DNA of 64,000 nt from an uncultured virus (IMG/VR IMGVR_UViG_3300033553_000824). Lineage: Duplodnaviria; Heunggongvirae; Uroviricota; Caudoviricetes. The stretch's first letter is position 1, and every line of letters begins with the position of its first letter. Below are positions 9,886 through 58,940 of this stretch, in pieces. The stretch lies in the IMG/VR virus record IMGVR_UViG_3300033553_000824; one strand, given 5' to 3'. A program made the position numbers and the translations under genes. The notes beneath the pieces were generated by a model. The model saw only the letters and a program-made list of their open reading frames with translations, did not search any database and was not told the origin of the DNA.

Positions 9886-10035
9886 CTTAGAGGATTCCTT
9901 GCCTTAATTTGATTATAAAAAACGCTAATATAGTATATTATCGGCAACATACTCAATTAGCACATTTTTTATAAAACCTCCCAAAACGGAAGTGAAACGT
10001 TTTTAGGAAAAGAAGAAAACGTAGTTAACCTAGCT

Positions 10036-11799
10036 TTAGCATTGTTTGGAGGCGGCGTCGCTGTTTATCACACCAGTTCCCCCGAGAAGAATAATGCGGT
10101 TCACGTTGAGGTTTTTAAGAGCCAGGTAGGTTGCTGCGGGCATACAGGTTTTCTGACTGAGCAGAATAGGGGCGTTAGCTGCTGCGGCGGATGCGGCTCC
10201 TGCCAGAGCATCAGGGAAGTTATCCCCAACAGTTATGTAAGCTACGTTTGTTGTGGCTGGGGTGAAATAGTTTGAAACAATCGCCGCGCTCGTATCATAC
10301 CTTGAGCTACCTGAATATCTTGATATGGTCACCGGACCAAGCGCACCTGTTATTTGTGTTTTAAGTGTAGAAGAAAGAACCCCTTCTCCACCTAAGAAAA
10401 CAACTTTTGTAATACCTAATGTTTTCATCGCAGCTAACGTCTCCGCAGGGACACTGGTCTTAGTTGACAGCAGCAGAGGATAGCCGTTGATACCGCCCAC
10501 AGGCCCGCCTGAGAGAGCATCAGGGTAGTTTGTACCGGTAGCTAAGAAAGCTGTGTCCGTGGTGTTAGAGGGGAAATATTGTGTAGCTACTTTCGCTGCT
10601 GTGGAATACCGGTTAGCCCCATATACTCTAGCTGCCCCTCCAGTTCCCGCTAACGTTTTGAGTTGATTAAACACAGTATCATTTATAACACTCGGGCCTC
10701 CAAGAACAACTATTTTACGTGGAGATAATCTCTTGATTTCAGTTACCACACTAGCTGGCACACTATTATGTTGAACCAGAATAACAGGGCTTCCTAAACT
10801 AGCTGCTGCGGGACCAACAGAAAGAGCATCAGGAAAATTCTCGCCAGTAGCTATGAACACTGTATCTATTGGTGCGGAGAAAGATGCTTTGCTTATAGCC
10901 ACACCCGTATCGTACCTGCTAGCTCCCGCTAAACGAGTCAGAGCCGCATGAACTCCAGAACACGTTGGCTGAGAAGACATCCCAGCTGAACTAGCGGTGA
11001 ACACTCCTCCGGTTGAAGAAGAGCCGAAACAAATCTCCGTCCCGTTTGAAGTTAAAAGCCTGATACTGTATGAACCTGGTGGAACATCCGAGAAAGTGAA
11101 TACGTTACCTGGGCGAGCGCCACACTGTTTGAAGAAATCATTACCGCTTGGTTCGCTAACCAAAACCACGCAATCAGCTGTCCCAGAATACGAAACGTTA
11201 TCCAAATCGATAACAACATCAACCGGGTCCGGAATTGCTGAAGGGGTACCGTAATCACCAAAAACTTGAACACCCCACGTGTAACCTAAACTATCCTGAT
11301 AAACACCAACACCAATATGGGTCCAACCTGGGTTCAGCATACTCTCATTATGGGGAGGGCTGTTACGCCACTGAATCATGAGTTGTTTATAAGGGGTGGG
11401 GTAACCGGCGTTTACAGCTATGTTCTCCCCCGCTCCTTGCCACCCTGACGGTATCTGATCAGACATGTCAGGGTTATGCCTGAACGCTGTGCTAGTGTCC
11501 CCAGAAGCCGCATAATCAGATGCCATACGCTCAGCCCAAGCTTGCGCTACCGCTGATATCCTAGGGTCATGTACTAAACGGTCAACACCATTAGCTTCAC
11601 GATAATCGTTTGTGTCCCTCAGTATAGTCTCGAAACCAGCTGCCGTTTCATCTTGAACTGCTCCAGCGGGGGTAACAAAAGTTATTGACAACAGCAAAGC
11701 AACTAGAGAAGCGCCAACAGCTCTAACTAGATTTTGGCTTCCGGCTTCTAATGACGAAAGAGCGGTGCCCTTATTTTGTAAAACTTTTGCTATTCTCAT
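10036..11799 (-). CDS. Secreted CAP (SCP) domain protein with three cell-wall-binding repeat 2 domains
   Basis: Signal peptide; NDYR..NG, GENIA, WRNSPPH..MLNP..THIGVG; three (R)xxGxxRYxT...G.N(F/Y)PDAL repeats. Confidence 0.9.
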   Translation of the reverse strand: MRIAKVLQNKGTALSSLEAGSQNLVRAVGASLVALLLSITFVTPAGAVQDETAAGFETILRDTNDYREANGVDRLVHDPRISAVAQAWAERMASDYAASGDTSTAFRHNPDMSDQIPSGWQGAGENIAVNAGYPTPYKQLMIQWRNSPPHNESMLNPGWTHIGVGVYQDSLGYTWGVQVFGDYGTPSAIPDPVDVVIDLDNVSYSGTADCVVLVSEPSGNDFFKQCGARPGNVFTFSDVPPGSYSIRLLTSNGTEICFGSSSTGGVFTASSAGMSSQPTCSGVHAALTRLAGASRYDTGVAISKASFSAPIDTVFIATGENFPDALSVGPAAASLGSPVILVQHNSVPASVVTEIKRLSPRKIVVLGGPSVINDTVFNQLKTLAGTGGAARVYGANRYSTAAKVATQYFPSNTTDTAFLATGTNYPDALSGGPVGGINGYPLLLSTKTSVPAETLAAMKTLGITKVVFLGGEGVLSSTLKTQITGALGPVTISRYSGSSRYDTSAAIVSNYFTPATTNVAYITVGDNFPDALAGAASAAAANAPILLSQKTCMPAATYLALKNLNVNRIILLGGTGVINSDAASKQC

Positions 11800-11945: not shown

Positions 11946-12509
11946 ATGATGACTGTCAAGGCAGGCTGGTACAGAAGAAAGAGCGACGCTATCCGTTACT
12001 GGGATGGGGAAGCGTGGACAGACCACGTATATAAAGGGCCAGTGGAAGAAACTGAAGCCCCTGAAGCGGAAACTAAAGGCGAAGAAGCTCCCCTAGAAAC
12101 GCCTGTAGCTGACACCCCCGCAGATTATACCCTTACCCCTGACCCTCCTACATCGTCTGAAACGAATGGCGAGCAGCAAGTACCTTGGCCGCCCGTATTC
12201 GCAAAAGGCTCTGACATAAAATCTGATCTTAGGTCCCCTAAAACTAAGACAGAAGAAGCAACTGCTACCGTTAAAGATGCGCCTAAAGGCAAAAAAGGCT
12301 CTAAAAAAGTTAACAAAGTACTGATGATACTAGCAATAATAATCTTAGGGCTAGCTTTAGTTGGCGGTGTCGTTGGCACTTTTATGTTCAACAGTCCGCA
12401 ACAGGCTGCCCCAACAGGCGCTGTATCAGTTAGCAACCTAGCTGTGGTCGGGGTTGACTCAGAATATAACAGTTTCTCTTCTCCGCTGAATGGCGCGTTA
12501 ACCCTCTAA
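11946..12509 (+). CDS. DUF2510-domain membrane protein
   Basis: AGWY...RYWDGEAWT N-terminus; one TM helix. Confidence 0.8.
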   Translation: MMTVKAGWYRRKSDAIRYWDGEAWTDHVYKGPVEETEAPEAETKGEEAPLETPVADTPADYTLTPDPPTSSETNGEQQVPWPPVFAKGSDIKSDLRSPKTKTEEATATVKDAPKGKKGSKKVNKVLMILAIIILGLALVGGVVGTFMFNSPQQAAPTGAVSVSNLAVVGVDSEYNSFSSPLNGALTL

Positions 12510-13672: not shown

Positions 13673-13996
13673 ATGTCACAACAACCATACACCCCGCCCA
13701 GCAGGTTCGACAACAACGGCGGAGGGGGATACCCGCCACAGTACGGCAACAGCACTGAGAAAGATTGGATGGGTATAGTTTCCATCATTGGCGCTTTCTT
13801 CTTCCCTCTTCTCGGAGTTATCTTCGGCCACATGGGAATGAAAGCGAACAGAGAAGGTCAAGCCTCCAACGAAGGTCTCACTAAAGCAGGTCTCGTCTTA
13901 AGCTATGTGTTCTTAGCTATAGGTTTATTGTTCACCATATTCTACTTCGTTGTGCTAGCATCAGCTGTTTCCTCAGGAACAGTAACAGTCCAGTAA
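13673..13996 (+). CDS. DUF4190-like membrane protein
   Basis: Pro-rich N-terminus; two TM helices with GVIFGH.G...AGL..SY. Confidence 0.8.
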   Translation: MSQQPYTPPSRFDNNGGGGYPPQYGNSTEKDWMGIVSIIGAFFFPLLGVIFGHMGMKANREGQASNEGLTKAGLVLSYVFLAIGLLFTIFYFVVLASAVSSGTVTVQ

Positions 13997-14917: not shown

Positions 14918-15199
14918 GTGTCACAAGTACCTTACTCACCGAAACAACCCAGCTACCCGCCATACGTAAGAAACACAGAGAAAGACTGGATGGGCATAGT
15001 TTCACTCATCGGGGCTTTCGTGTTTCCCATAGTAGGTATTGTTTTCGGTCATCTCGGAATGAAAGCATACAGGGAAGGCGAAGCTTCCAATAATTCAATA
15101 GCTAAAATAGGTCTCATTCTAAGTTACGTTTTCACCGGATTGAGCGTACTGGGTTTCCTGTATGCCCTCATTCTCGCAGCAACAGTATCTTCAACCTGA
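14918..15199 (+). CDS. DUF4190-like membrane protein, paralog of 13673-13996
   Basis: Shared TEKDWMGIVS.IGAF.FP..G..FGH.GMKA.REG.ASN. Confidence 0.8.
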   Translation: MSQVPYSPKQPSYPPYVRNTEKDWMGIVSLIGAFVFPIVGIVFGHLGMKAYREGEASNNSIAKIGLILSYVFTGLSVLGFLYALILAATVSST

Positions 15200-19711: not shown

Positions 19712-21565
19712 TTACGTTTCTTCGCCCATGACACCGGATATCCTACGATAGCCTTTGCTGATAATTGTGTTGAGCTCTTTCTCCGCATCAACCCTCGTCG
19801 CCGCGTCACTTTCGCTGACCAGCACTTTCATAAGCTCCAGTATTTTCTCATAATCTGCTACTGAAAACGTAGAAGATTTAAGTAGCGGCACTTGGGAGAT
19901 GCTACCTTTCACATGTTTCAGAGGTTGATTAAAAATAGTATAATACATGCGCTGATAAATATCAGAGTTAAGAACAGCTGCCACATATAAAAGGTTATCT
20001 GTTTCTGGGATAAGAAAATTACAGCTGTTAAGAGTTAATGTTCCTTTATCGTCCACACAGAACATAAGTTTCTTACCAATAAAATTATAAACAATTTTGG
20101 TTCTCTTATATAACCCAAGAGGAGCTTTCTGACGCATATCATCAAACTTCCCGTTCAGGAACCTGGTAGAAGACAACCGGTTAACTCTGTACGGTTCAGT
20201 GATGTTCTTTCCTGTAAGAACAGGTAACCTGTTCACCTTATCTGTGAGGAACTTTTTGTTATCACCAGTCACAATACCTAAACCCCAAGAGGTGTTCTCA
20301 GTGTTTAGATAAAACACGTGAGGTGACTTCTTTAGTGAACTTATGAGTTTCATTGTTTCGTCAGAAGCGAACAGATAGAAGTTGTTGTTAACAGCTTCCA
20401 AATATTCCCCCTGTAAAATAGTTCTGTCGGATGACAGCAGACCAGGGTGCACAAGACTAACCTTATCTGTACTCAACGAAACTTTGTTCCCAGGAAAACC
20501 ATTTCCTTTAATCCCAGTTAGCTGAACAGCCGGGGTCATTACTTTATCGAAAGCCCCACAATAATGCCGGATGCTTAATAACTGGTCGTTTATTAAAATG
20601 TGTTCACGGATATTCTGATGTCTTACAACATTCGTTACACTCTCAGGTAAAGTAACAGTGAACTGCCCACCGTCCTTCAACCAAGCTAAAATGTTATGAA
20701 CACCAACCGCGAACGTCTCATAATTATATGAAATGCCCAACTGTCCAGAAGGCCCCCATTCCCGTTTAGAGAGCTTAGCGCCCCAAGGAGGGTTAGTTAC
20801 CACAATGTCTAACTTGAAGTCGCCCACCGAGCTCACAGCAGCTAAAGAGTTCATCTCTACTGCGTTCAACACTATGTTCGGGTCGCCATAAAACTTAGAG
20901 AGTAAGAAAATATTATATTGAGCGATAAGTAAAGCAACCGGGTCTATATCACCAGCCCAGAACATACTTGGAGATACCTTAACACCAAGTTCTTTTAACT
21001 TCTGAACCATAAAAATAAGGTACCTACCTGAACCACTGAACGGATCACAAATCTTTGTAGTGTCAGTAACGTTGTCATAGTTAAGTTCAGAAACAGCTTT
21101 CATGATTATCTTCTCAGGGGTGTAATAAACCCCACCGATGTTCTTATCCTTCTCAAACAATATAGCCTCATAAAGAACACCCACCGCATCAACAACTCCA
21201 GGTATTATAAGGTCACGCGCAGAGGTAGCTACAAGTGTTATTGTTTCAGGGGTAACAGCTTCCCTCAACGCAGAAGGCAACTCCGCCAACAAAACACCAC
21301 GCTTCGTAGCATCCAAAACCACAGCCAACAACACAGCGTCTTTAGAAGACAAGTTATGTTTCTCAACGAAATCCACAAAACTAACTATAGTAACAAAATC
21401 TGTGTCCCCTAAAACCGTTTTAGGGATACTCTTACGTAAAGACATAGTTTTATTAGCCCCACGAGTCAACCGGGTGGCTTTAAGAGCATCCAAAGTCAGA
21501 GCACCATGAGTATCCGCGCCAGCTTTCAACCAGTTGCTCAACGTGCCCCCAGAAACGCTACTCAT
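19712..21565 (-). CDS. N6-adenine DNA methyltransferase (gamma class, TaqI-like C-terminal recognition domain)
   Basis: GVYYTP, DPFSGSG (motif I), GDID, NPPW (motif IV), AVLNS. Confidence 0.88.
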   Translation of the reverse strand: MSSVSGGTLSNWLKAGADTHGALTLDALKATRLTRGANKTMSLRKSIPKTVLGDTDFVTIVSFVDFVEKHNLSSKDAVLLAVVLDATKRGVLLAELPSALREAVTPETITLVATSARDLIIPGVVDAVGVLYEAILFEKDKNIGGVYYTPEKIIMKAVSELNYDNVTDTTKICDPFSGSGRYLIFMVQKLKELGVKVSPSMFWAGDIDPVALLIAQYNIFLLSKFYGDPNIVLNAVEMNSLAAVSSVGDFKLDIVVTNPPWGAKLSKREWGPSGQLGISYNYETFAVGVHNILAWLKDGGQFTVTLPESVTNVVRHQNIREHILINDQLLSIRHYCGAFDKVMTPAVQLTGIKGNGFPGNKVSLSTDKVSLVHPGLLSSDRTILQGEYLEAVNNNFYLFASDETMKLISSLKKSPHVFYLNTENTSWGLGIVTGDNKKFLTDKVNRLPVLTGKNITEPYRVNRLSSTRFLNGKFDDMRQKAPLGLYKRTKIVYNFIGKKLMFCVDDKGTLTLNSCNFLIPETDNLLYVAAVLNSDIYQRMYYTIFNQPLKHVKGSISQVPLLKSSTFSVADYEKILELMKVLVSESDAATRVDAEKELNTIISKGYRRISGVMGEET

Positions 21566-24641: not shown

Positions 24642-27600
24642 ATGACAGAGAATATTGAAGCAGCAACTAGTGTTTTAGATCCTCTTGTGGCGCAGCCTCT
24701 GAACCCTTATACTTATAAGCTCATTTATTGTTACACAGTTCCGGGCTCTTCGAGTCATGAGGGTTTATGTAAGATAGGTAAAACGAATTTCTCTACGAAC
24801 CGCCCTTTCGGTTCTTTAAGCCAAGATGAGATTGATGATTTGGTGAGTGTCGCAGCTGATAATCGCATTAAGCAGCAGCGGGGAACTATTAGTGTTAAAA
24901 CTCAAACCCATTGGGTTGAGAGTGTCGCTGGGTTGGCTGTAAGTAAATCATCTAGTGAACCGGATAATGTTTTCCGTCGTTGGTTGGAGCTTAAAGGCTA
25001 TAAGCAGGGTAGACCTAATGGGAGTGAAGGTACAGAATGGATGTATATCAGTCCTGAGGAAGCTCATGAGAAGTTTCAGGAGTTCAGTGCTGAAATGTCA
25101 TCGAAAGATGATGCCCTTAAACTTTCTTCAGAGTATCCAGCGGTTGTCCTCAGGAAAGAGCAGCAGCACTTTGTTGATAATACAACGGAAGCTTGGGAGA
25201 AAGGTCGGGAGGAGCGCCTGTGGTTCGCTAAGATGCGTTTCGGTAAAACAATCACAGCTTACTCTTTCTTGAAGAACATCCTACAGAAAGAGAACGCCCC
25301 TAAACGTATGTTAGTTCTCACTCACAGACCAGTTGTTAATGACGGTTGGCATAAGGATTTCCAGAAAGTTATGCAAGGTACCAACTGGGAGTACAGCAGT
25401 AAAGAACTGTCGGATGCTAAAAAATATGGGAACTCCAGAACCAAAACATTAAAGGAACTCGAAAAGAACAACACCCCGTACACCTATTTTGTGAGCATGC
25501 AGGATCTTCGCGGTAAAGACAAAATGTATAACAGTTTCAAACAAACCAACAAAGATATTTTTGACACCCCTTGGGATATTGTCATCATTGATGAAGCTCA
25601 CGAAGGTAACAGTACCGAACTGGCAGAACAGGTTCATGAGGGGCTTAACCGTAAATTCACTTTGTATCTCTCAGGAACCCCTTACAAACTTGTTGGTGGA
25701 GAAAGGTTCCCTCAAGAAGACATTGACACTTGGGATTACACTGATGAGCAAGAAGCTAAAGAACTGTGGGATACAAATCACCCGCATCTCGATAACCCCT
25801 ATGCTGTGCTACCTCAAATGTGGATCAACACTTTAGATATCCGTAAGAAACTCAAAGAAGAAATCCAAGAGGAATTCATTACAGAGAACGAAGACTCGGC
25901 GTTCGACTTTAATAAGTTCTTCGAAACTAAAGACGGTAAAACTTTCACCAATGAGAAGCACATACTCGGGTTCCTCAAACAAATCAAAGGCCCCGAAAGC
26001 AACAAAGGGTTCATGCCTTTCTCACCGCAACGACAACATCTCCTCAACCACACTTTATGGGCCCTCCCCAGCGTTAAAGCTTGTAAAGCAATGGAAGCAC
26101 TACTCAACCAACATGAGTTCTACTCAAAATACACAATACTGAACGTCTCAGGTGACGACGAAGCTGAAAGTAAAGCCCACCTCAACAAAGTTGAGAAAGC
26201 CATAAGCGACAAACCCAACGAAACTAAAACCATCACCCTCACTGTGGGTAGGTTAACAACAGGTGTTTCTATTCCAGCTTGGGTTGGTGTTCTTATGTTA
26301 AGGAACACTAACAGCCCGGAATTGTATATGCAAACTATTTTCCGCGTACAAACCCCGCACGAGTTAGATGGTGCCCGTAAAGAACACTGTTATGTTTGGG
26401 ATTTCGCTCCTGACCGTGTGCTAAAAGTGTTCACGGAAGCTAACGACATTTCAACTAAAGCAGGCGGGGCGACCTCTAATGACGGGCGTTTCAGCGAAGC
26501 GAACAAACGGAGCCTCAACAAACTCCTTAAGTACCTTCCAATTATTTCACGTACAACTTCAGAGGATTTACGTTTCGATGATGCTGGCAAAATTCTACGT
26601 CAACTCAAAAGAATATATGCTGAACGTGTCACCCGTTCAGGGTTCGACACTAACTTACTGTTCATAAAAGACCTGGGTGTTTTAACCCCAGAAATCCGTG
26701 AAGCTATAGAAGAAATCAGACAAACCAGCGGCAGCTCAACAAGTACCTCAAATAAACTTGATAAGAACATCACCATCGCTGCGAACGGTATGTTAGGTGG
26801 TAAAGATAAAACCACCCCACCAACAGATGAGGAGCTTGAAGCTCAAAGGAAAGAGCTCATACAGAGTTTGAAAGAGCCAGCGCTCACTGAAGAAGACAAA
26901 ACGGTTCTAAAAGAACAGAAAGAAGCTGTCAACAAAGAACAACAAGAGCGTTCACAGATCCGTAATGTTCTAAAAACCATTAGCGTAAGAATACCTTACA
27001 TGGTTATGGCGTTAATGTCAGACCAGCATTTCAAGAGAAACAAACTGGAAGATAACTTCACAATGAAAGAATTCGCTGATGCCATAGATGACGAATCTTG
27101 GAAAGAGTTCTTCGGTACTATAACTAAAGAAACTTTCAAAATGCTTGAACCTGCTTTTGACGCTGAAGTTCTACAAGTGTCAGTGAAAGACTGGATAGAC
27201 CAAACCGAGAAAGCTGTTAACCTACGTAACACAGATGTAGATGAATATATTAAAAGTATTCGTGAGCTGATGCTGAAAGTTAAAAACCCGAACAAAGAAA
27301 CAGTGCTCACACCCTTCGGCGTTGTAGAAATGGTTTACCATGCTGCCGGGTTCACCAATGATAAAACCGGGCAAAAGAAATGGGCTGAAACTCTCAAAAT
27401 GAAAGAACGCCAACACGTGGATGGTAACCATGAGAAACGACACCGCAGTTTTTATGATATTAACGTAAAAACAGGGTTCTTCCCACTCTACGCAGCATGG
27501 CAGCTTAGTAAAGCAGCGCAAAACAAATACGGCGACAAAGCATACAGTTGGGATAAAATATGTGACGAGCTAATATACGCTAACAGTCGCACCCTCGCAG

Positions 27601-29126
27601 CCAAATGGGTTACCTGCACACTCCTAGGTAAACCACGCGAATGGGACCACATCACCGTCATCGATGTCATAAAAGAGTTAGAGCAAGACGATATAAAAGA
27701 AAACTACAAATATTTCCAAGTGGGATACAAACTCACAAAACAATGGCAATCGAAAGGCAAACAACTCACAGATGAGCAGCTTCTTGAACGGATAGAACAA
27801 ACAGAAGTAAAAGTTAAAGAATACAGCAAAACATTAAATGAGAAAGTTAAGGCAGGCGACATGACAAGACAAGAGAAAGAGGAAGCTGTGAACACCAAAC
27901 GCAGCGAACTCACACAAGAGCTTGCTGACAACATAACAGACTTCAAATTCGATTACACTATCAGCAACCCGCCATATCAGATAGTCATGAATACAGCTAC
28001 GGGAAAGGCGTTTCCTATATGGCAAGAATTTATTTGGGTCGCCAATAGTAACTCTCGAAACATGGCTTTTATAAACCCAGCAAGATGGCTTAAGGGAGGC
28101 CAGGGAACAGGTTTGCTGCCAGTTAAAAACTGGCTACTAAGTAACCCTCATCTGAAAGAATTTATTACTATGCCTGGGGGAGAAGTATTTCCAAGTGCTG
28201 GAATAGCAGGCGGAGTGTCTATCGAAATTATTAACAACGGAGAAGAGTATGATAACCCATTACGAGGAGAATGGTCACCAGCTTCACAAAAGTGGATACA
28301 AAAACTAGCACCATATATACGAACAGAAGGCATAGATATTTCCCTTAACCCTGCAGATGAGGTTCTAATATCTAAAATTTTAGTTGCTAATATAGGTCCT
28401 AGTGTAGAGAGGAAGCTGTGGGTTGGAGGTCAGGATAACTCGGTAAAGGCTAAATCAAAGCATTCTGAATATGATAGTAACCGAGACTATACGCTGATGG
28501 GGCCCCGCCTGATTAGAGACACTCACTATTTTATTCTTGAGGAGGAAAAGCAAGCTGGACTTGACTATGTTAAAATCTGGTATAATGATAGGAGTCCTAA
28601 AGCAAGATTCTTACCGCGAGATGAATTCGTAGATAATGATATAAATAATAGTAGAATCCCTACTTGGAAAGCGCTAGTCCCCAAGACTAATGCTCATTTT
28701 ATTTACCGTAATCTTGGGCCTATCGGTGAACCCAGCTCCCTATCAACTAACACTTGGAACTGTATTAGCTTTGATAGCGAAGAAGAAGTTAAGAGTTATT
28801 ATTCTTACCTTAAAACGTACTTCTATCGTTACCTTATTAGCACCCGCACGGTATCCCATAACGCTTTAGCTAATGCTCACCGTTTCATTCCGGACCTGGT
28901 TGACATAGTTAACCCCCGCACCGGGAAGAAAGGCTACGAGTCTGATTGGACTGATGATGATTTACGTATCATTTTCAAAGATGTGCTAACGGATGACGAT
29001 TGGCGTTACATTAAGAAGAAAGCTGTTGAAGCTGATGGTGGCAAAGGTGATTATGAAGCCGGTTGGAAGTTTCCTGACGGTAGCAAACATAGTTCTTTAG
29101 TGCTCAAAGAAGATGTTGATGAGTGA
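24642..29126 (+). CDS. Fused nuclease (T5orf172/GIY-YIG-like), SF2 helicase and Eco57I-like adenine methylase/recognition domain; restriction-modification-like enzyme
   Basis: LIYCY...CKIGKT...RIKQQ...GTEW; AKMRFGKT, LTHRP, IIDEAH, LSGTP, QTIFRVQ; ETVLTP, DINVKTG, ISNPPYQ. Confidence 0.85.
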   Translation: MTENIEAATSVLDPLVAQPLNPYTYKLIYCYTVPGSSSHEGLCKIGKTNFSTNRPFGSLSQDEIDDLVSVAADNRIKQQRGTISVKTQTHWVESVAGLAVSKSSSEPDNVFRRWLELKGYKQGRPNGSEGTEWMYISPEEAHEKFQEFSAEMSSKDDALKLSSEYPAVVLRKEQQHFVDNTTEAWEKGREERLWFAKMRFGKTITAYSFLKNILQKENAPKRMLVLTHRPVVNDGWHKDFQKVMQGTNWEYSSKELSDAKKYGNSRTKTLKELEKNNTPYTYFVSMQDLRGKDKMYNSFKQTNKDIFDTPWDIVIIDEAHEGNSTELAEQVHEGLNRKFTLYLSGTPYKLVGGERFPQEDIDTWDYTDEQEAKELWDTNHPHLDNPYAVLPQMWINTLDIRKKLKEEIQEEFITENEDSAFDFNKFFETKDGKTFTNEKHILGFLKQIKGPESNKGFMPFSPQRQHLLNHTLWALPSVKACKAMEALLNQHEFYSKYTILNVSGDDEAESKAHLNKVEKAISDKPNETKTITLTVGRLTTGVSIPAWVGVLMLRNTNSPELYMQTIFRVQTPHELDGARKEHCYVWDFAPDRVLKVFTEANDISTKAGGATSNDGRFSEANKRSLNKLLKYLPIISRTTSEDLRFDDAGKILRQLKRIYAERVTRSGFDTNLLFIKDLGVLTPEIREAIEEIRQTSGSSTSTSNKLDKNITIAANGMLGGKDKTTPPTDEELEAQRKELIQSLKEPALTEEDKTVLKEQKEAVNKEQQERSQIRNVLKTISVRIPYMVMALMSDQHFKRNKLEDNFTMKEFADAIDDESWKEFFGTITKETFKMLEPAFDAEVLQVSVKDWIDQTEKAVNLRNTDVDEYIKSIRELMLKVKNPNKETVLTPFGVVEMVYHAAGFTNDKTGQKKWAETLKMKERQHVDGNHEKRHRSFYDINVKTGFFPLYAAWQLSKAAQNKYGDKAYSWDKICDELIYANSRTLAAKWVTCTLLGKPREWDHITVIDVIKELEQDDIKENYKYFQVGYKLTKQWQSKGKQLTDEQLLERIEQTEVKVKEYSKTLNEKVKAGDMTRQEKEEAVNTKRSELTQELADNITDFKFDYTISNPPYQIVMNTATGKAFPIWQEFIWVANSNSRNMAFINPARWLKGGQGTGLLPVKNWLLSNPHLKEFITMPGGEVFPSAGIAGGVSIEIINNGEEYDNPLRGEWSPASQKWIQKLAPYIRTEGIDISLNPADEVLISKILVANIGPSVERKLWVGGQDNSVKAKSKHSEYDSNRDYTLMGPRLIRDTHYFILEEEKQAGLDYVKIWYNDRSPKARFLPRDEFVDNDINNSRIPTWKALVPKTNAHFIYRNLGPIGEPSSLSTNTWNCISFDSEEEVKSYYSYLKTYFYRYLISTRTVSHNALANAHRFIPDLVDIVNPRTGKKGYESDWTDDDLRIIFKDVLTDDDWRYIKKKAVEADGGKGDYEAGWKFPDGSKHSSLVLKEDVDE

Positions 29127-29808: not shown

Positions 29809-31254
29809 ATGAGCAAGCCCAGGGTTAGACTCAACACCCCGCTACAGAAGCACAGTCAGGGTTTATGTGGTTGTAGTTTTACTGTCAACCCTAACTTTTG
29901 TGTTTATCAACCGTTTTTGGATGGTTGGGATTTCACTTCTGATGTTGGTAATGGCGGTAAGCGTGGTGAGATTTTCACTCCTCGTTTCATTGTTGATAAA
30001 ATGATTGTAGATTCGGGGATGCTCCCTGAAGCCGCTGTGTATGATTATGATTACACTACGTTGTCTAAAGCTGATGCTCTGAAAGTTGTTCGCGCTAAAA
30101 TCAATGAACCTGCTATTGGTACCGGTAATTTCTCTTCAACTATTTTGTGGCATAAGGTCCATTATGTTGATTTTGTGTCACGTAACAAAACTGGGCGTTT
30201 AGATTTGAAGAAATATAACCTTCATCTGTTGGAAGCTATAGCTAGCATGTATTCGAATGATATTGATGTTGGTAACCTGGAAGCCTCTAAATGGCGTTTC
30301 CTGCGTTTAGGTGGTATTTACACTGAGAAGAACGTTGAGTTCTGGGTTGACCATATTTTGAACACTTTGGATGTTGAACTTAACTTTGAGAACTTACTAC
30401 TGGAGAATGAAACTTACAGCATGAAAGTTCTGGGTGAGTTTTTCACTTCAATGGCTGTCGTAGCTGACGCTAAAACAAACGAAGCAAGCACAGTTGTAGA
30501 GGAAACCGACACCGAACCTGTGTCTGAAAGTTCCGCTCCTGAGGCCTTAAAAACACATCTTGAACAACTATCCGAGGAGGAGACGAAAGTCGCTCAGACG
30601 ACCGTACAGGCCCTGCTGAAAGCAGATATTGAGACCCAAGTGCGCGCTAGTCTCACAGCAGCTGATGAGAACTGGGCTGCTGCCGATGAGGACAGAGGTA
30701 TCATAGATGTTCTATACAAAAAACACACCGGTCAGAACCCAACTTTAGCTACCAGGGAACTATGGAAACACATACTTGATGAGAACATGAAACTCTTCAA
30801 CGGTATAATAGAAGACGACACTATAGACGTTGAGAACAACTTTATTGTCCCCGGTTGGTTTAACATCAACTGGACCTGGTGGGGTTTCAGCAACTGGGCT
30901 GCTCCTAAAACAGGGCAAGAAGGTGAAATCTCAGTTGACATCCAAGAAACACGTGTACCCCTAGCGAAACAAATCCTAGAAGGCAAACTAGCTAACCTCA
31001 AACAAGAGATACTGACCTTAGAAGAAAAACGTGTACCAGAAGCTGAAGGCACCACAACTAAAGCCTTAGATATTAAAACAGAACCTAAACTAGTTTTCGC
31101 AGATGATAAAGACAAGAAAACTTACACAGAGAAGCAACGCCAAGTACGTGTCACCGAGAAGAAAATAAAACAAATCGAAACCGGTAAACTAGAAATAGAG
31201 TACGCCCCCATGGAAGCTCTCACCATGGAAGCAGACCAGGGTAGTTTATTCTAA
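29809..31254 (+). CDS. Methyltransferase-like SAM-binding subunit lacking an NPPY motif
   Basis: GEIFTP...VDKM, EPAIGTGNF (motif I), YSNDID; no NPPY/DPPY seen. Confidence 0.7.
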   Translation: MSKPRVRLNTPLQKHSQGLCGCSFTVNPNFCVYQPFLDGWDFTSDVGNGGKRGEIFTPRFIVDKMIVDSGMLPEAAVYDYDYTTLSKADALKVVRAKINEPAIGTGNFSSTILWHKVHYVDFVSRNKTGRLDLKKYNLHLLEAIASMYSNDIDVGNLEASKWRFLRLGGIYTEKNVEFWVDHILNTLDVELNFENLLLENETYSMKVLGEFFTSMAVVADAKTNEASTVVEETDTEPVSESSAPEALKTHLEQLSEEETKVAQTTVQALLKADIETQVRASLTAADENWAAADEDRGIIDVLYKKHTGQNPTLATRELWKHILDENMKLFNGIIEDDTIDVENNFIVPGWFNINWTWWGFSNWAAPKTGQEGEISVDIQETRVPLAKQILEGKLANLKQEILTLEEKRVPEAEGTTTKALDIKTEPKLVFADDKDKKTYTEKQRQVRVTEKKIKQIETGKLEIEYAPMEALTMEADQGSLF

Positions 31255-31284
31255 GGCCTTCAATTCAATATGATTATAATAATG

Positions 31285-31290
31285 CCGATA
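31285..31290 (+). promoter_or_regulatory. CCGATA promoter-like motif in the AT-rich leader of the CRISPR-like array
   Basis: TCAA-N15-GCCGATAT resembles the sigma28 consensus TAAA-N15-GCCGATAA; same motif precedes more than 20 genes. Confidence 0.6.
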
Positions 31291-31480
31291 TTTATAACTG
31301 TACTTAAATTTTAGGTTCAGCTAGGCTTAAGGGCCTGGTATTTGAGTACTTTCCCCGCTCAGGCGGGGCTGAAACCATTAGCGCAATCAGAGAGCATATA
31401 TGATCTGAATGTTCCCCCGCTTAGGCGGGGCTGAAACTCCGTTCCGGCAAAAGTCCGAGGCGAAGAGATTGGGATTTATA

Positions 31481-31705
31481 ATGAGTGTAATATCCAAGGA
31501 AGACTGTCCCCCAAAGGGTAATACGATATTTCTTATGGCGCTGTTAGGTGCCGTCTTGCTGTTCGGAAAGAATGAGCAGCCGCAGCCTAGGGAGCAGTGG
31601 TATGACAAAGGGTCTAAGGCTGAGGCCGTTGTCGTTCGCGCGCTACTCAGCGCGCTCATCATCTTATTCCTCACTGATGCGCTACTGTACCTGTTCTTAT
31701 TGTAG
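31481..31705 (+). CDS. Possible 74-aa two-TM membrane protein within long spacer 1
   Basis: Two hydrophobic segments; stop ends 1 nt before repeat 3; no clear RBS and a competing minus-strand ORF. Confidence 0.4.
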   Translation: MSVISKEDCPPKGNTIFLMALLGAVLLFGKNEQPQPREQWYDKGSKAEAVVVRALLSALIILFLTDALLYLFLL

Positions 31706-31752
31706 AATGTTCCCCGCTCAGGCGGGGTTGAAACCACAAACTTTAGTATTTG

Positions 31753-31941
31753 TTAACCCCTCACTTCGAACTCGCAAAGCGCCCAGGCCTTAGCAGCGTC
31801 ATAGCGTGTACTTGGTGATGACAAAGGGAGCACGTTCATCTGCCGCATGAGGTAGTTATAAGCGTTCATCTGCTCCCTGCTTGGGGGAGCGCCAAAGTGC
31901 CACTTGTAGGCGTCGAAGACTACTTGCTCAATCGGGGTCAT
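31753..31941 (-). CDS. 62-aa hypothetical protein within long spacer 2
   Basis: AAGGAG RBS at 31948-31953 and a sigmaA-type promoter upstream. Confidence 0.75.
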   Translation of the reverse strand: MTPIEQVVFDAYKWHFGAPPSREQMNAYNYLMRQMNVLPLSSPSTRYDAAKAWALCEFEVRG

Positions 31942-31968
31942 AATGTTCTCCTTGTTAGGTACCTCTAA

Positions 31969-31997
31969 AGTATGCCATACCTTCAGGAGCATGTCAA
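31969..31997 (-). promoter_or_regulatory. Sigma70/SigA-type promoter inside long spacer 2
   Basis: TTGACA (31997-31992), 17 nt, then CATACT (31974-31969) with extended -10 TG. Confidence 0.75.
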
Positions 31998-32144
31998 GTG
32001 TTGCGTGGTAGGAGTCCTGGAATAACATGTTCCCCGCTCAGGCGGGGCTGAAACCAGCTTAGTTAACATAAAAAGAGGATTAAGGCGGCTCTATAATACT
32101 GAGCCGTTAGATAAGTGAGAACCAATCAAAGGAAGATGATACTA

Positions 32145-32435
32145 ATGGGAAAATACGATCACACTAATAAGAAGGAACTCTCTTCAGTCATGTACGGGGT
32201 TAAAGCTAACTCGAACCGGTACCCGGCTGACATAGCTGATTACGCTGATGGTGTCCTTAAATCTGATTTCCTCCCTGAGTACGCTTCTCATGTTCTTGAG
32301 GTTGCTGCTAGGGAAGTGAACACCATGGAGTTAGATGGTCTGTTCGGTGGTAAACTATCTGGGGTTGAAGTTGTTGCTCTTAGGAATGTTATTAGCAAAT
32401 GGTTGCTGTCTGAAGCTAATGAGGCGCTCCAATAA
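32145..32435 (+). CDS. Hypothetical protein
   Basis: CGTTAG motif at 32105; AGGA RBS. Confidence 0.65.
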   Translation: MGKYDHTNKKELSSVMYGVKANSNRYPADIADYADGVLKSDFLPEYASHVLEVAAREVNTMELDGLFGGKLSGVEVVALRNVISKWLLSEANEALQ

Positions 32436-32564
32436 TAGTTGGTGCTGTCCCACGATAGTTTGGGTTGTCCCACGATAGTTTGGGTTGTCCCACGATAGTT
32501 TGGGTTGTCCCACGATAGTTGGCGCTGCCCCACAATAGTTGGTACTGTCCCACAATAGTTGGGT
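32435..32564. repeat. 20-bp tandem repeat, about 6.5 copies
   Basis: ATAGTTTGGGTTGTCCCACG three exact copies flanked by variants; intergenic. Confidence 0.95.
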
Positions 32565-32640
32565 AGCGTAGGGGCATAAAAAAGTGTGAACCCCTGCCCG
32601 TTAGATAAGTTGAAGGTTACATTATTAGAGGAGATTTGTT

Positions 32641-33063
32641 ATGTTCGGTAGAGATAATGGCGGTTTGAACAGTAAGTTCGTTCCTGTTTTAACAACAGGA
32701 AGGATTGAAGCCTCAAATTTTAAGGGAGTTAAGTCTTTACCTTCAGTTCCTTTGGATACGTTATCTCTTTATCTTCACGGTAAAGTGAAAGGTGTTACCC
32801 GTATTGGCAATCCGGAGCAGATTATGTCGCTCATAGAGCAAGGGGGTTTCGGTGATGTTGTGGGTTTATGGGTAAAAGATGACGGTCGTGTCTCCAAAAT
32901 GGCTGTGTTTAACAGGGAAGGTAAGATTCTGGATAACTGGTGGGAGGACATCACTAAGGAGCTAAAAGAGGACGCTGTGTTCGGGTATCGTTATGATGTA
33001 GGCCGGTATGTTATGTTAGCTGGTCCTGATATAGATTTAGTTGATCTTATAAAGAGTCTCTAA
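32641..33063 (+). CDS. Hypothetical protein, family A
   Basis: MFG start, GGFGDVVGLW, FNREG, YVMLAGP. Confidence 0.75.
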   Translation: MFGRDNGGLNSKFVPVLTTGRIEASNFKGVKSLPSVPLDTLSLYLHGKVKGVTRIGNPEQIMSLIEQGGFGDVVGLWVKDDGRVSKMAVFNREGKILDNWWEDITKELKEDAVFGYRYDVGRYVMLAGPDIDLVDLIKSL

Positions 33064-33095
33064 CTAACATATTTTACTGACAAGGAGATACATTT

Positions 33096-33290
33096 ATGAG
33101 TACGAGCATAGAGGATTATGTAAAGTTTTTAGCTAAACCTATGAAAGATAAAGATATGTCTGAAGCACGTAACGTAGCTGCTGCGGATTTGAAGGTAAGT
33201 AACCCTGGTATATACGATATGGTTGTTGAGAAAATAGCGGAATATAAGAAAGAGTTCCCTGAAAGTGAATATTTTTATTTGAAAGTTTAG
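33096..33290 (+). CDS. Hypothetical protein
   Basis: AAGGAG RBS. Confidence 0.65.
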   Translation: MSTSIEDYVKFLAKPMKDKDMSEARNVAAADLKVSNPGIYDMVVEKIAEYKKEFPESEYFYLKV

Positions 33291-33472
33291 CGAAAATGGT
33301 TTCCATTTATTACTGATATTCTAGTATAGAAGCTACTCCAGGAGTTGAAGTCGATTATGGACAAAGAAGATACAGGAAAAGAAGTTCTTATCACTAGTTC
33401 TGTTGGGGACATACAGTTAGAGGGTTTCGGTTTAGCCAGGAATATAGAGGTTTTCGAAATGAAGGAGCAGGT

Positions 33473-33667
33473 ATGACTATCAAACAAGGTGATCGTGTAG
33501 CGGATATGGATGAGGGGCTTGCTATGCTCCGACAGATTATGGGCACTGGTGAACCTAACCATCATGGAACAGTTAGTGAAGTTATTGGGGATACAGCTTA
33601 TATTTTGTATGATGATGACCAGTGCGCTCCGTGCCCTGTTTCTCAACTCGTTAAGTTGGATGAATAA
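33473..33667 (+). CDS. Small hypothetical protein, possibly SH3-like
   Basis: AAGGAG RBS; GDRV...GTV.EV.G..AYI. Confidence 0.65.
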   Translation: MTIKQGDRVADMDEGLAMLRQIMGTGEPNHHGTVSEVIGDTAYILYDDDQCAPCPVSQLVKLDE

Positions 33668-55688: not shown

Positions 55689-55926
55689 CATCGGCTTCCA
55701 CCTACTGTAAGGGGGCGTTGCCTGGCCGATAATGAAGACATCATTAGAGTTCCGGGATTTTGCTAAATACAAAAACCCCTGTGCGGAAGGAACGCCAGAA
55801 AACAATTCACCCACAACAACAGAAGAGCCCCTAATTAGACCCTCAACCTCTTCGTAACTATGTATAAGACATATTGCAGCGTAACCGCGCCGATAGGATT
55901 AACATAACAAGAAAGGCATTAAACCA

Positions 55927-56709
55927 TTGAACAATCTGACATCTCCAGCAGAGCGGTATGACAACCCTACACTTCCCGCACCACAGTTCGAGTATGATGA
56001 GAGCAGGAGAGATGAAGGTTCCAATCAGCAGCCACAATCTCGCAGGCAACGCCGCAACAGCCCTTATCGCCACAGTTGGGTGGTGGCCACGTTACTGTCA
56101 ACACTACTCCTGGCCGCATGCTCCCCGTCCGCAAGCAACCTCAAAACCCCAAACATCATCTGGCCTGACGGTGCGCCCAGCGGCCCACTCGAAGACTCCG
56201 ACTGGGGTCAAGCATACCGCCACATCGAGATTGAACTCTCAACCGCGCAGGCTTTTGGCGACTTCTCAGACCCGGACCTCATTGCAGCCGTTGGGTATGA
56301 CCTGGCGGAGCGCTACGCCAACAACTGGAGCGCGTTCGGCTTTGACCCAGAGACAACCGACAGGAACCAGATCGAGGCCATCACGACATACGCCTCGAAG
56401 AGCATCATCGCTGATATAGAGGAACAGACGGACGGACGGTCAGCCGAGGTCTCCGTTTGTGGCGGATGGTTCACCACAATCGACGGCGCGGATCACCTCA
56501 TCTATGAATGGGAGTTTGCGCGCTCAGATGACGGTCACATCACCGTCACCGACGTGTGGCTCAACACCGACCGGGAGACATGTAGTGTCTTAGTGCCGCA
56601 GCCAGGGTTGTGGGCCGAACCCTTCGATTCCGCAGACATTGACCCGCCCAGCGTGAAGAAGCCGCTTCCCCGCGACTACTACATTGACCTGGGTGTGATC
56701 AGCGAGTAG
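55927..56709 (+). CDS. Lipoprotein-like protein: GC-rich body fused to a shared leader
   Basis: LLLAAC lipobox; about 60% GC after 56078; leader shared with 56816. Confidence 0.7.
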   Translation: MNNLTSPAERYDNPTLPAPQFEYDESRRDEGSNQQPQSRRQRRNSPYRHSWVVATLLSTLLLAACSPSASNLKTPNIIWPDGAPSGPLEDSDWGQAYRHIEIELSTAQAFGDFSDPDLIAAVGYDLAERYANNWSAFGFDPETTDRNQIEAITTYASKSIIADIEEQTDGRSAEVSVCGGWFTTIDGADHLIYEWEFARSDDGHITVTDVWLNTDRETCSVLVPQPGLWAEPFDSADIDPPSVKKPLPRDYYIDLGVISE

Positions 56710-56815
56710 CTACCAGTCACACAACATCCATAGAAGATCATCCGAACCAGATATGAGACATATTGTAACATAACCGCGCCGATAGGATCAACATAACAAG
56801 AAAGGTGTTAAACCA

Positions 56816-57310
56816 ATGGACAACCCATCAGACCGGAACGACAACCCTACCCTGCCCGCGCCACAGTTCAAGTATGATGAGAGCAGGAGAGGTAAGAATT
56901 TGAATCAGCCACAATCTCGCAGGCAACGCCGCAACTCACCTTATCGCCGCAGTGCTACTTCCACTGAATCAAACAACGGCTCCCGGCGAATGGGCTATGC
57001 AGAGTCTAAAAAATGGAATGACCGAAGCGCCTCGAACGTCTTCTGGATCACCACATGGTTCGGTGCTTTCATCTCAGTACTTACCGGTATTATCACCGCG
57101 ATGGTGATGGCAGGCTCACACCGCCCAAGAATCCCTTTCGTCGGTCACACAACATTCATGGAAGATCACCCAAACTTCCCTCTAATTACAGTTTCACTGG
57201 CTGTGGCGATCATAATATGGCTGATGTTCATAATAGGAGCTGCCATACAGGCTATAAAAGCCAAACGTCGCGAACGCTTGAAACGGCAAATCCCAGGGCT
57301 GATTAAGTAA
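56816..57310 (+). CDS. Two-TM membrane protein with the same leader
   Basis: DNPTLPAPQF.YDESRR...QPQSRRQRRNSPYR shared with 55927. Confidence 0.75.
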   Translation: MDNPSDRNDNPTLPAPQFKYDESRRGKNLNQPQSRRQRRNSPYRRSATSTESNNGSRRMGYAESKKWNDRSASNVFWITTWFGAFISVLTGIITAMVMAGSHRPRIPFVGHTTFMEDHPNFPLITVSLAVAIIIWLMFIIGAAIQAIKAKRRERLKRQIPGLIK

Positions 57311-57524
57311 CAAACCCTTAACCAGACCCTCAAACCTTTTCATAACTTTAACCTATTCAAATCTAATTCTTACAAACTTGCGCTCTTCGGACTAATGAGG
57401 TATTTTTTTTCAAGGGATATTCTAACAAAATTATAGTATACAAAAGAGCTAACATGTGGTAAGGTTAAACGTTAAGGTCCGCCTGAAGAATAGCTCTAAA
57501 ACTAGAATTTGAAGGAAAAATATT

Positions 57525-58307
57525 ATGAAACTCACTATCATTGGTTCATCCGGTTCAGTTGCTGGTCCTGACAACCCTGCCTCTTGTTACCTCATCGAAC
57601 ATACCAACGGTAACATTTCCACTAAAGTCCTATTGGATCTTGGTACAGGAGCCCTTGGTCAACTACAGAAGATTATCGACCCATCAGAACTAGACGCTAT
57701 TCTCATCACTCACGCCCATCCAGATCATTGCTCAGATCTTGAAAGCCTAGCAGTCTGGCAAAAATACGGTCCACCTCTTTACGCTGATAAGCCTACTCTC
57801 CGAATTCCATTATACGCACCTCAGGACGTTTTCAGGAGACTCACAGCCCTCGAATCTCACAGCGGCGGAAATTTCATTTCCGTATTCGACTATCATTCAA
57901 CTCGCTCTAACATTTTTAAGATTGGAGCTTTCACTATTGAAGATTGGCGCGCATGGCACCCAATCCCTTCTTCCATGTTCAGTATTACAGGCCCATCTTC
58001 AGTGCGCGAAGGAAACTCCACTTTGTTCTTCACCGGAGATACCGACCTTAACGATAACGTAATTAAAGCAGCGCGCGGAGCTGATGTACTCCTTGCTGAA
58101 GCAGGCTGGGCTCACCGAGAAGTAAACCCAGCTGGAATTCACATGAACGGAACTCAAGCTGGAGAACTCGCGAAAGCTGCTGATGTAAATAAAATGCTTC
58201 TCACCCACATCGTTCCTTGGGTTGACCCTAAACTAACTCTCGATAAAGCCCAAATCGTCTTTCCAAATACTGAACTAGCTTCCCCAGGAGCTACTCATTT
58301 AATCTAG
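57525..58307 (+). CDS. Metallo-beta-lactamase-fold hydrolase (RNase Z/BN-like)
   Basis: GSSGS...PASCYL, DLG, THAHPDH, TGDT, H.NG..AG, LTH. Confidence 0.9.
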   Translation: MKLTIIGSSGSVAGPDNPASCYLIEHTNGNISTKVLLDLGTGALGQLQKIIDPSELDAILITHAHPDHCSDLESLAVWQKYGPPLYADKPTLRIPLYAPQDVFRRLTALESHSGGNFISVFDYHSTRSNIFKIGAFTIEDWRAWHPIPSSMFSITGPSSVREGNSTLFFTGDTDLNDNVIKAARGADVLLAEAGWAHREVNPAGIHMNGTQAGELAKAADVNKMLLTHIVPWVDPKLTLDKAQIVFPNTELASPGATHLI

Positions 58308-58490
58308 AGTCAACATCGACTTATCCTATAAGGAACAAATATGAAACTCGAACCTGAAAACTCCCAAAGGGTTGCGCTATATTATTATTTAACGAAGCTC
58401 TGCTAACAACATACACTGGTGTAACACAGGTCATCAAAAAACTAGCATAAACACGCCGATAGGACCAACATAACAAGAAAGGTCAAACCA

Positions 58491-58940
58491 ATGGAAAACC
58501 AAACACCCCCAGCAGACTGGTATGACGACCCTACCGCACCGAACCTCCTAAGATACTGGGATGGGGAACAATGGACAGAACACACAGCTCCCCGCCCAAC
58601 ACAACAACCAAACCAACAGACAGCCGCCCGAACCGCCACCGAACCAGCAGCACCCAAATATGTTATATTCGGCTACGCATCACTAGCAGCCGCCATCCTA
58701 TCAATAGCCCTAATCATGACCTCATTCATCGACATGATTAACGGGAGCAACATCTACCTCCTAGGGTTAACCAGCGTGTTCACAGCAATCATCATCGGAC
58801 GCCTCGGATTCAACAAACTCAGCCTAACATTAGAAAAAACCCCCAAAACCCTCAGCGTCATAGCACAAGTCACCGGATATGTCATGCTCCTAATGTACGC
58901 CGGAATTGGCCTAGTCTGGATCATCGAAAAACTAGCATAA
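58491..58940 (+). CDS. DUF2510-domain multi-pass membrane protein
   Basis: PADWYDDP....LRYWDGEQWTEH; three TM helices. Confidence 0.85.
   Translation: MENQTPPADWYDDPTAPNLLRYWDGEQWTEHTAPRPTQQPNQQTAARTATEPAAPKYVIFGYASLAAAILSIALIMTSFIDMINGSNIYLLGLTSVFTAIIIGRLGFNKLSLTLEKTPKTLSVIAQVTGYVMLLMYAGIGLVWIIEKLA

Follow-up and report, generated by a model that had tools for sequence, protein, structure and literature searches.

The 64,000-nucleotide (nt) stretch of DNA analysed here (the window) comes from the uncultured virus record IMGVR_UViG_3300033553_000824 of IMG/VR (Duplodnaviria; Heunggongvirae; Uroviricota; Caudoviricetes). At positions 31348-32056, four copies of a 30-nt hairpin repeat (R1 to R4) alternate with one short spacer and two small open reading frames (ORFs) of 74 and 62 amino acids (aa), the latter on the minus strand. 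The first-pass annotation had read the segment between R3 and R4 as a long spacer in an array of short palindromic repeats that are clustered and regularly interspaced (CRISPR), carrying a self-contained foreign expression unit antisense to that array. The promoter-like site, the AAGGAG, the 62-aa ORF and its stop codon are each found where it had placed them, and the unit is indeed self-contained, all of it lying inside the 290 nt that separate R3 and R4, with margins of 29 and 16 nt. The word spacer itself is probably wrong, as the segment holds a whole gene beside solitary repeat copies and has no adaptation-like look; the 62-aa ORF does not behave like a CRISPR spacer. The features of the locus are as follows.

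31285..31290, plus strand: CCGATA motif in the context aatGCCGATAtttataa, 58 nt upstream of R1; -10-like motif of a putative native promoter
31348..31377, plus strand: repeat 1 (R1), ACTTTCCCCGCTCAGGCGGGGCTGAAACCA; 5' end degenerate; RNA hairpin of 6 bp with a tetraloop, -12.5 kcal/mol
31378..31408, plus strand: spacer 1, 31 nt; the sole spacer of canonical length
31409..31439, plus strand: repeat 2 (R2), 31 nt, with an extra C, the loop TTAG and the tail ACTC; the most degenerate copy
31481..31705, plus strand: 74-aa ORF, sense with the repeats, with two hydrophobic segments; an ORF without relatives (ORFan); its stop ends 1 nt before R3
31707..31736, plus strand: repeat 3 (R3), flanked by the stops of the 74-aa and 62-aa ORFs, which converge on it
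31753..31941, minus strand: 62-aa ORF (protein P0001) with its stop codon, beginning MTPIEQVVFDAYKWHFGAPP; three-helix fold predicted; one of the two known members of its family
31948..31953, minus strand: Shine-Dalgarno sequence AAGGAG, read directly, 6 nt ahead of the ATG at 31941
31969..31997, minus strand: sigma-70-like putative promoter, TTGACA-17-CATACT with an upstream TG (extended -10), matching at 10 of 12 positions
32027..32056, plus strand: repeat 4 (R4), ATGTTCCCCGCTCAGGCGGGGCTGAAACCA; the best-preserved copy
32104..32435, plus strand: CCGTTAGATAAGT motif, followed by a native gene of 98 aa (32139-32435), at the right edge of the GC-rich island

Repeats of the island

The repeat unit is 30 nt long, with a 16-nt core, CCCCGCTCAGGCGGGG, and is present in four plus-strand copies between 31348 and 32056; written out, the repeat of the island is GTTCCCCGCTCAGGCGGGGCTGAAAC. 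Allowing up to two mismatches, the core was found at four sites in the window against 0.03 expected, a number reached by none of 100 shuffles. The distances from start to start are 62, 297 and 320 nt, leaving intervals of 31 nt (R1-R2), 267 nt (R2-R3) and 290 nt (R3-R4). R3 and R4 are identical at 29 of 30 nt. Every copy folds into a 6-bp G+C stem with a tetraloop (-12.5 to -13.7 kcal/mol), and conservation extends past the stem, the non-hairpin flanks ATGTT... and ...CTGAAACCA being kept as well. R3 is flanked by two convergent stop codons (31705 and 31753); its hairpin has no U-tract on either strand, and none of the four repeats was called terminator-like.

The arrangement was recovered from public sequencing runs. 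A Logan contig of run X1, which may be the window's own source, covers 30800-32475 and thus all four repeats with 0 differences, and a contig of run X2, a second sample from the same study, covers 31368-32475, again with 0 differences. The first contig bridges the whole island and the second extends from R1 past R4; the layout is not an assembly artefact of one sample.

The 62-aa gene, its neighbour and their origin

A word-index search with the 62-aa protein returned only the protein itself. An exhaustive phmmer search of 1.84 billion representatives revealed a single relative, P0002 (69 aa, E 2.7e-5), encoded by a 1,619-nt contig and sharing 33 of 69 positions (48%) with P0001 by BLASTP. Both proteins start with MTPIE and end with (K/R)AWALCE.(D/E)VRG, so that start and stop coincide, and the common MTPIE start favours the 62-aa form over a 91-aa form beginning inside R4. 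A profile search from the alignment of the two found just these two members. Single-sequence AlphaFold (AF2) models of P0001 and P0002 gave predicted local distance difference test (pLDDT) scores of 83.0 and 84.8, respectively, both with three helices. In a codon model trained on 31 ORFs of the window, the annotated frame scored best of the six, at a low 0.098 (training mean 0.221, range 0.086-0.354). Since its homologue has a coincident start and end, the 62-aa ORF is very probably a genuine gene, as judged from sequence comparison, and it is predicted to be expressed on its own, probably from the promoter-like site described below. No RNA run is among the public runs that contain the stretch, and one metatranscriptome of the study (10 million letters) gave no coverage of the stretch and is uninformative about expression.

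Homology and structure searches with the 62-aa protein, suggested in the first-pass annotation, thus yielded one homologue and a confident three-helix fold, with no functional match. The protein had no match in Pfam (E up to 10), PHROGs, PADLOC, NCBIfam or PDB sequences, nor in an Atlas feature search, and Foldseek of the model against PDB and BFVD gave nothing better than E 0.5. The suggestion of a captured phage early gene, serving host takeover or anti-defence, therefore gained no support from homology or fold. The window holds no paralogue of the protein, and none of 95 candidate loci in the collection metagenome_contigs encodes the family. Three candidate relationships were rejected. A DUF4214-like identity was dropped, the Atlas structural neighbours all falling under the bar and Pfam to E 10 giving no DUF4214; the sigma-2 domains of extracytoplasmic function (ECF) sigma factors reached VIA-align Z scores of 4.4-5.7, below the stated helical background; and a locus of the collection viral_contigs (L027) matched over 11 residues in an out-of-frame stretch of a high-GC gene, that is, by chance.

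The 74-aa ORF found only itself in the searches for relatives. Its frame is likewise the best of six in the codon model, with a low score of 0.039, and its coding status is uncertain.

Both ORFs differ from the element in composition. The 62-aa ORF has a GC fraction of 0.54 and a GC fraction at third codon positions (GC3) of 0.667, ranking 2 of 101, and the 74-aa ORF has 0.50 and 0.627, ranking 3 of 101; the 99 other ORFs of the window have a mean GC3 of 0.403 (standard deviation 0.063), and the native genes flanking the island 0.42 and 0.39. The 98-aa gene at 32139-32435 (GC3 0.418, codon score 0.274) is typical of the element, and native-type promoter motifs stand at both island edges, at 31285 and 32104. 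Base composition supports a foreign origin of the two ORFs. Because the two inter-repeat ORFs with unusual GC3 lie exactly inside the repeat-bounded block, one co-acquired unit is argued, and the block of about 0.7 kb (31348-32056) looks like a single acquired island.

The first-pass annotation had based foreign origin on the promoter instead: most other genes were said to be preceded by CCGATA or CGTTAG motifs, marking a housekeeping-type promoter as an import. The promoter-like boxes of the 62-aa gene are TTGACA (31997-31992) and CATACT (31974-31969), 17 nt apart on the minus strand and 15 nt upstream of the strong Shine-Dalgarno sequence, with a predicted transcription start near 31962. Sigma-70-like matches at 10 or more of 12 positions numbered 13 in the whole window against a shuffle mean of 21.8 (50 shuffles, range 13-42), and nine against 10.0 expected between 29000 and 35000, where the site of the 62-aa gene ranks top. 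At the shuffle rate, the estimated chance of such a site in a given 100 nt of one strand is about 2%. The promoter of the 62-aa gene therefore shows no excess over chance by motif alone; a putative promoter is plausible, the match gaining weight because it lies directly upstream of a Shine-Dalgarno sequence and a conserved ORF. A scan of the promoter region reported no inverted repeat that could act as an operator. Sigma-70-like sites are, if anything, depleted in the window; the element may carry, or make use of, an alternative sigma factor.

Of 99 ORFs, 33 have CCGATA or CCGTTAG in sense in the 100 nt upstream of them, compared with 6 in the antisense control. The motifs, (G)CCGATA and CCGTTAG(A), typically lie 33-61 nt ahead of start codons (for example at 9944, 11860, 24585, 31285, 32104, 32598 and 51059), and we take GCCGATA to resemble the -10 element of sigma-28-type promoters. 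Enrichment of the native motifs thus holds, although "most" genes was an overstatement; with sigma-70-like matches at or under chance and native motifs at just a third of the ORFs, foreign origin does not follow from the promoter and stands on composition. The CCGATA at 31285 is presumed, from its position, to drive plus-strand transcription across the repeats. Elsewhere in the window (55890-58940), three modules have almost the same block upstream, aaccgcgCCGATAggaYYaacataacaagaaaggt, which precedes the ORFs at 55927, 56816 and 58491; the first of these has the highest GC3 of the window (0.682) and the third carries DUF2510.

Relation of the repeats to type I-E CRISPR arrays

The wildcard pattern TTCCCCGC-N4-GCGGGG-N-TGAAAC was searched in the genomes of 185,579 species, giving 26 loci, of which 14 lie within arrays that have a 61-nt period and 5 to 174 repeats (arrays being counted at four or more repeats of that period). 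We take these 14 arrays (L001, L002, L007, L009, L012, L014, L016, L017, L019, L020, L021, L022, L024 and L025) to be type I-E by their likeness to the E. coli repeat. Their dominant repeat is (T/C)GTTCCCCGC-N4-GCGGGGATGAACCG, and R4 agrees with it at 22-24 of 29 positions (76-83%). The flanks of the island repeats also match I-E repeats, with TGTT before the stem and TGAA.CC after it, and the R1-spacer-R2 unit has a period of 62 nt against 61 nt in the 14 arrays. The ...TGAAAC variant stands among the last five repeats in 13 of the 14 arrays and is the last one in eight; in L020 it is the 130th of 174. Because the variant ends up late in 13 of 14 arrays read that way, array orientation supports the plus strand of the window as the one with the sense of CRISPR RNA (crRNA). 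Together with the CCGATA 58 nt upstream of R1, this orientation bears out the earlier statement that the 62-aa gene is antisense to the array. We consider it likely that the repeats are CRISPR-derived.

Array-like spacing fits R1-R2 alone, the other two intervals measuring 267 and 290 nt against spacers of about 32 nt, between repeats of about 29 nt, in type I-E. A solitary repeat unit (SRU) is defined as a repeat more than 100 bp from other repeats, intergenic in a virus or plasmid and with no cas gene nearby. Both R3 and R4 are intergenic, at 297 and 320 nt from neighbouring copies, with no cas gene in the window; by the 100-bp rule they count as SRUs, and R1-R2 as a mini-array.

Neither the 50,697 phage and 72,556 plasmid records searched nor IMG/VR contain a protospacer of spacer 1, giving only chance-level partial matches, and there is none within the window. 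In a module of the CreTA type, a spacer-like segment is partly complementary, through its PAM-proximal seed, to the promoter of the small gene beside it. The best seed matches of spacer 1 reach a chance-level 10-11 of 12 positions at unrelated sites of the window and none falls at the promoter of the 62-aa gene (31962-32026), so that a CreTA-like local circuit is unsupported. The wildcard repeat had no match in viral_contigs.

Other sources of the repeat were considered and rejected. Integron attC sites are at least about 57 nt long, open with RYYYAAC at the 5' end, close with GTTRRRY at the 3' end and have an adjacent intI. The island repeat is only 30 nt and of opposite polarity (GTT 5', AAC 3'), with no integrase match. 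The two hairpins of the same core in L005 and on a Klebsiella plasmid, described below, were rejected as relatives, being non-CRISPR intergenic hairpins. A separate observation concerns three candidate-phyla-radiation genomes (L004, L006 and L015; Nomurabacteria and Saccharibacteria), which carry an identical or near-identical solitary block, GCTTCCCCGC(T/G)AAAGCGGGGTTGAAACTCTTTG, that is probably part of a conserved structured RNA.

A possible counter-defence island and its setting

We tentatively propose a horizontally acquired counter-defence island, in which a mini-array and solitary repeat units are combined with small candidate anti-CRISPR (Acr) genes. Its likeliest function, held at somewhat less than an even chance, would be counter-defence against a type I-E-like CRISPR-Cas system of the host. 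A CCGATA-type promoter of the element itself would drive plus-strand transcription, and the resulting repeat-containing RNAs would load onto or tie up Cas6e/Cascade subunits of the host, acting either as an RNA anti-CRISPR (Racr) or through a crRNA or crRNA-like guide made from spacer 1. The small proteins encoded between the repeats would be candidate protein anti-CRISPRs, other anti-defence factors or accessory factors, as in racr-acr clusters. As the 62-aa gene and the repeat transcript run towards each other, read-through of that transcript would be antisense to the gene and could couple both expression programmes. Transcription of the repeats, their processing by Cas proteins and the anti-CRISPR activity are all inferred here.

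Known systems provide partial parallels. According to the available text of Camara-Wilpert et al. 2023 (PMC10651486), SRUs of viruses function as Racrs, and the 1 kb around racr candidates is enriched in predicted acr genes. Like the Racrs described there, the island has intergenic repeat mimics on a mobile element with no cas gene in view, a predicted promoter upstream and small genes within tens of nt of the repeats; RacrIC1 follows an AcrIC5 homologue at a distance of 11 nt, and the stop of the 74-aa ORF ends 1 nt before R3. Unlike them, as far as that text describes them, four copies within 0.7 kb alternate with two whole genes, one on the opposite strand. In addition, the island repeats are just 76-83% identical to known repeats, no matching host system is known and Racr activity is here only inferred.

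Phage Cracr arrays, as presented in the portion of the report at hand (bioRxiv 10.1101/2024.10.29.618823), include type I-E examples with degenerate repeats, which reprogramme Cas proteins and act together with Acr proteins, and their spacers of 21-24 nt match host cas or toxin promoters. The island resembles the Cracrs described there in being a short multi-repeat unit with degenerate repeats and an I-E-type hairpin on a phage-like element, with a possible Acr partner; it differs in that spacer 1 is 31 nt long without a target and the other intervals, of 270-290 nt, hold genes. Mini-arrays carried by viruses are directed against rival viruses (PMC11656645; Medvedeva et al. 2019, PMC6858448, in their accessible parts) and likewise combine repeat, spacer and repeat on a virus-like genome that lacks cas genes. 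In these accounts their repeats are identical to those of the host and their spacers match related viruses, neither of which was found for the island, and the mini-array model has no genes between repeats. Canonical I-E arrays share with the island the TGTTCCCCGC-N4-GCGGGG hairpin, the period of about 61 nt for the first unit and the same orientation logic. The canonical tail is CTGAAACC and that of the island ATGAACCG; unlike such arrays, the island has only four repeats, two intervals nine times too long that hold genes, and no cas gene within 64 kb. In the literature located, as far as its accessible text goes, no layout was found in which whole genes, one of them convergent, replace spacers between well-kept repeats.

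Several results weigh against the counter-defence reading. The exact or near-exact repeat occurs nowhere in genome_contigs (185,579 species), viral_contigs or metagenome_contigs, and ...NTGAAAC is dominant in no array of the collection, so that no cognate host system is known. The best identity to the 14 array repeats, 24 of 29 (83%), is under the 90% or more to a known CRISPR repeat that SRUFinder demands (17,823 repeats in its database, according to the available text of PMC10651486). The hairpin CCCCGC-TCAG-GCGGGG also occurs in non-CRISPR settings, namely in the recA-recX intergenic spacer of L005 (8001-8025), where its flanks resemble those of I-E repeats (GGTT... and ...ATGAAACG), and downstream of ssb on an IncFII plasmid from Klebsiella (L028, 1501-1522); a partial hairpin match was found in 2,383 plasmid records (2,251 of Klebsiella), of which one was inspected. 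No Cas family, Cas1 and Cas2 included, was detected by Pfam among the 102 ORFs of the window, which shows 64 kb of an element of at least 151 kb. Searches for a related element that could show whether the layout is conserved found none. The top VIA-align Z score of the 62-aa model (6.1) is within the stated helical-bundle background, no Acr, Aca or other family is matched by either small protein, and two transmembrane segments, as in the predicted product of the 74-aa ORF, are odd for an Acr. As relatives cannot be detected for most Acrs, the blank homology and fold searches for an Acr, an Aca or a helix-turn-helix (HTH) decide nothing.

A rather unlikely alternative is a mini-array for inter-virus conflict, with R1-spacer-R2 borrowing the I-E machinery of the host against a competing element and with unrelated morons, functionally unconnected to CRISPR, inserted by chance beside decaying repeats. 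The canonical geometry of R1-R2 (31-nt spacer, 62-nt period), the documented virus mini-arrays with one or two spacers (PMC6858448, PMC11656645, in the parts available) and the mosaic of small ORFan genes that makes up the window would all suit it. However, spacer 1 is without a protospacer, R3 and R4, which differ at a single one of 30 positions, are better kept than the other copies and do not look like decaying relics, and the shared GC3 of both genes argues for a co-acquired unit. It is unlikely that the repeat is a non-CRISPR intercistronic RNA hairpin, that is, a stabiliser, processing site or factor-dependent terminator that would separate small transcription units, with R3 working two ways between convergent genes. 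The recA-recX copy (in one genome) and the ssb copy speak for such a hairpin, as do the position of R3 between the stops at 31705 and 31753, the gene-sized spacings of 297 and 320 nt and the missing cas genes. It is opposed by the lack of a U-tract or any terminator-like call, by conservation beyond the stem into I-E-matching flanks and by the gene-free 31 nt that R1 and R2 enclose at the I-E period. Furthermore, the repeat is confined to the island within 64 kb despite about 100 other gene junctions.

That the 62-aa ORF is unexpressed here, a silent remnant or a chance ORF whose promoter match is coincidental, appears improbable. The unenriched sigma-70-like matches (13 against 21.8), the use of other motifs by most genes of the element and a codon score near the bottom of the training range would agree with silence, whereas the homologue with 48% identity and the same termini, the strong AAGGAG at ideal spacing, the best of six frames, the confident folds of both family members and the 2% chance of such a promoter match all argue against it. 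Storage of foreign DNA fragments between repeats by an unusual integration, with the ORFs as passengers, is highly improbable: the inter-repeat segments are compositionally foreign, but the 290-nt segment is one complete unit from promoter to stop with narrow margins (29 and 16 nt), and no Cas1 or Cas2 match was found.

A more speculative reading, to which we give little credence, has the repeats as boundaries of gene-sized cassettes, with a Cas6e-type enzyme cutting the plus-strand precursor at every repeat. The products, no more probable than the cutting itself, would be a normal crRNA, a monocistronic mRNA for the 74-aa membrane protein with a 3' hairpin, and a 320-nt repeat-flanked RNA antisense to the 62-aa gene. 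With the same low likelihood, expression of the 62-aa gene would be wired to active CRISPR processing in the infected cell, the 270-290-nt "spacers" might soak up the Cascade backbone far beyond a 32-nt guide, and, no less doubtfully, shared repeats could let co-infecting phages swap cassettes by recombination.

The host element is likely a large phage-like mobile element. The window has a GC content of 42% and about 100 small, densely packed ORFs, most of them without assigned function, and the protein collection assigns the 62-aa protein to a contig of 151,304 nt, the element thus measuring at least 151 kb. The public runs containing the stretch are labelled cold spring metagenome. Its recognisable genes encode a ParA-like ATPase, a CWB2/CAP wall-binding protein, Tpt1, an N6-methyltransferase, a 1,494-aa SNF2-helicase/Eco57I-type methylase, LemA, an M48 peptidase, an ornithine cyclodeaminase and a treble-clef/HNH endonuclease. 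A few ORFs fall into PHROG families with no assigned function, and virus status rests on these PHROG-only families, since scanning 102 ORFs of the window revealed no virion or replication hallmark; no integrase family was matched among them either. The region 30500-33500 had no DNA similarity to the 50,697 phage records, Rfam and tRNA scans of the window gave no match, and viral_contigs held no relatives of the neighbouring 481-aa and 140-aa proteins.

Three further observations concern this setting. Between the 98-aa gene and the next CCGTTAG motif, 6-7 head-to-tail copies of a 20-nt unit (32428-32567; consensus approximately TCCCACGATAGTTTGGGTTG) look like an array of iterons or protein-binding sites; the Logan contigs break there and word depth doubles. 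The N6-adenine methyltransferase with a TaqI-like specificity domain (19712-21565) and the SNF2-helicase/Eco57I-methylase fusion (24642-29126), which matches the PADLOC model of a type IIG restriction-methyltransferase and is 30% identical to proteins from Firmicutes plasmids, form a defence or anti-restriction pair carried by the element. The CAP domain with three CWB2 wall-binding repeats and the DUF2510 and DUF4190 proteins (10036-11799, 11946-12509, 13673-13996, 14918-15199 and 58491-58940) are of domain types commonest in Gram-positive bacteria, a hint of a Gram-positive host.

The island, found in two samples of a single study, stands alone without relatives, and if the counter-defence reading is not true it would amount to a curiosity of an uncultured element. 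If it is true, two new small proteins would be nominated as anti-CRISPR or anti-defence candidates against I-E-type systems, and the island would provide a natural example of a repeat RNA coupled to antisense control and would suggest that phages exchange counter-defence genes with the help of shared repeats.

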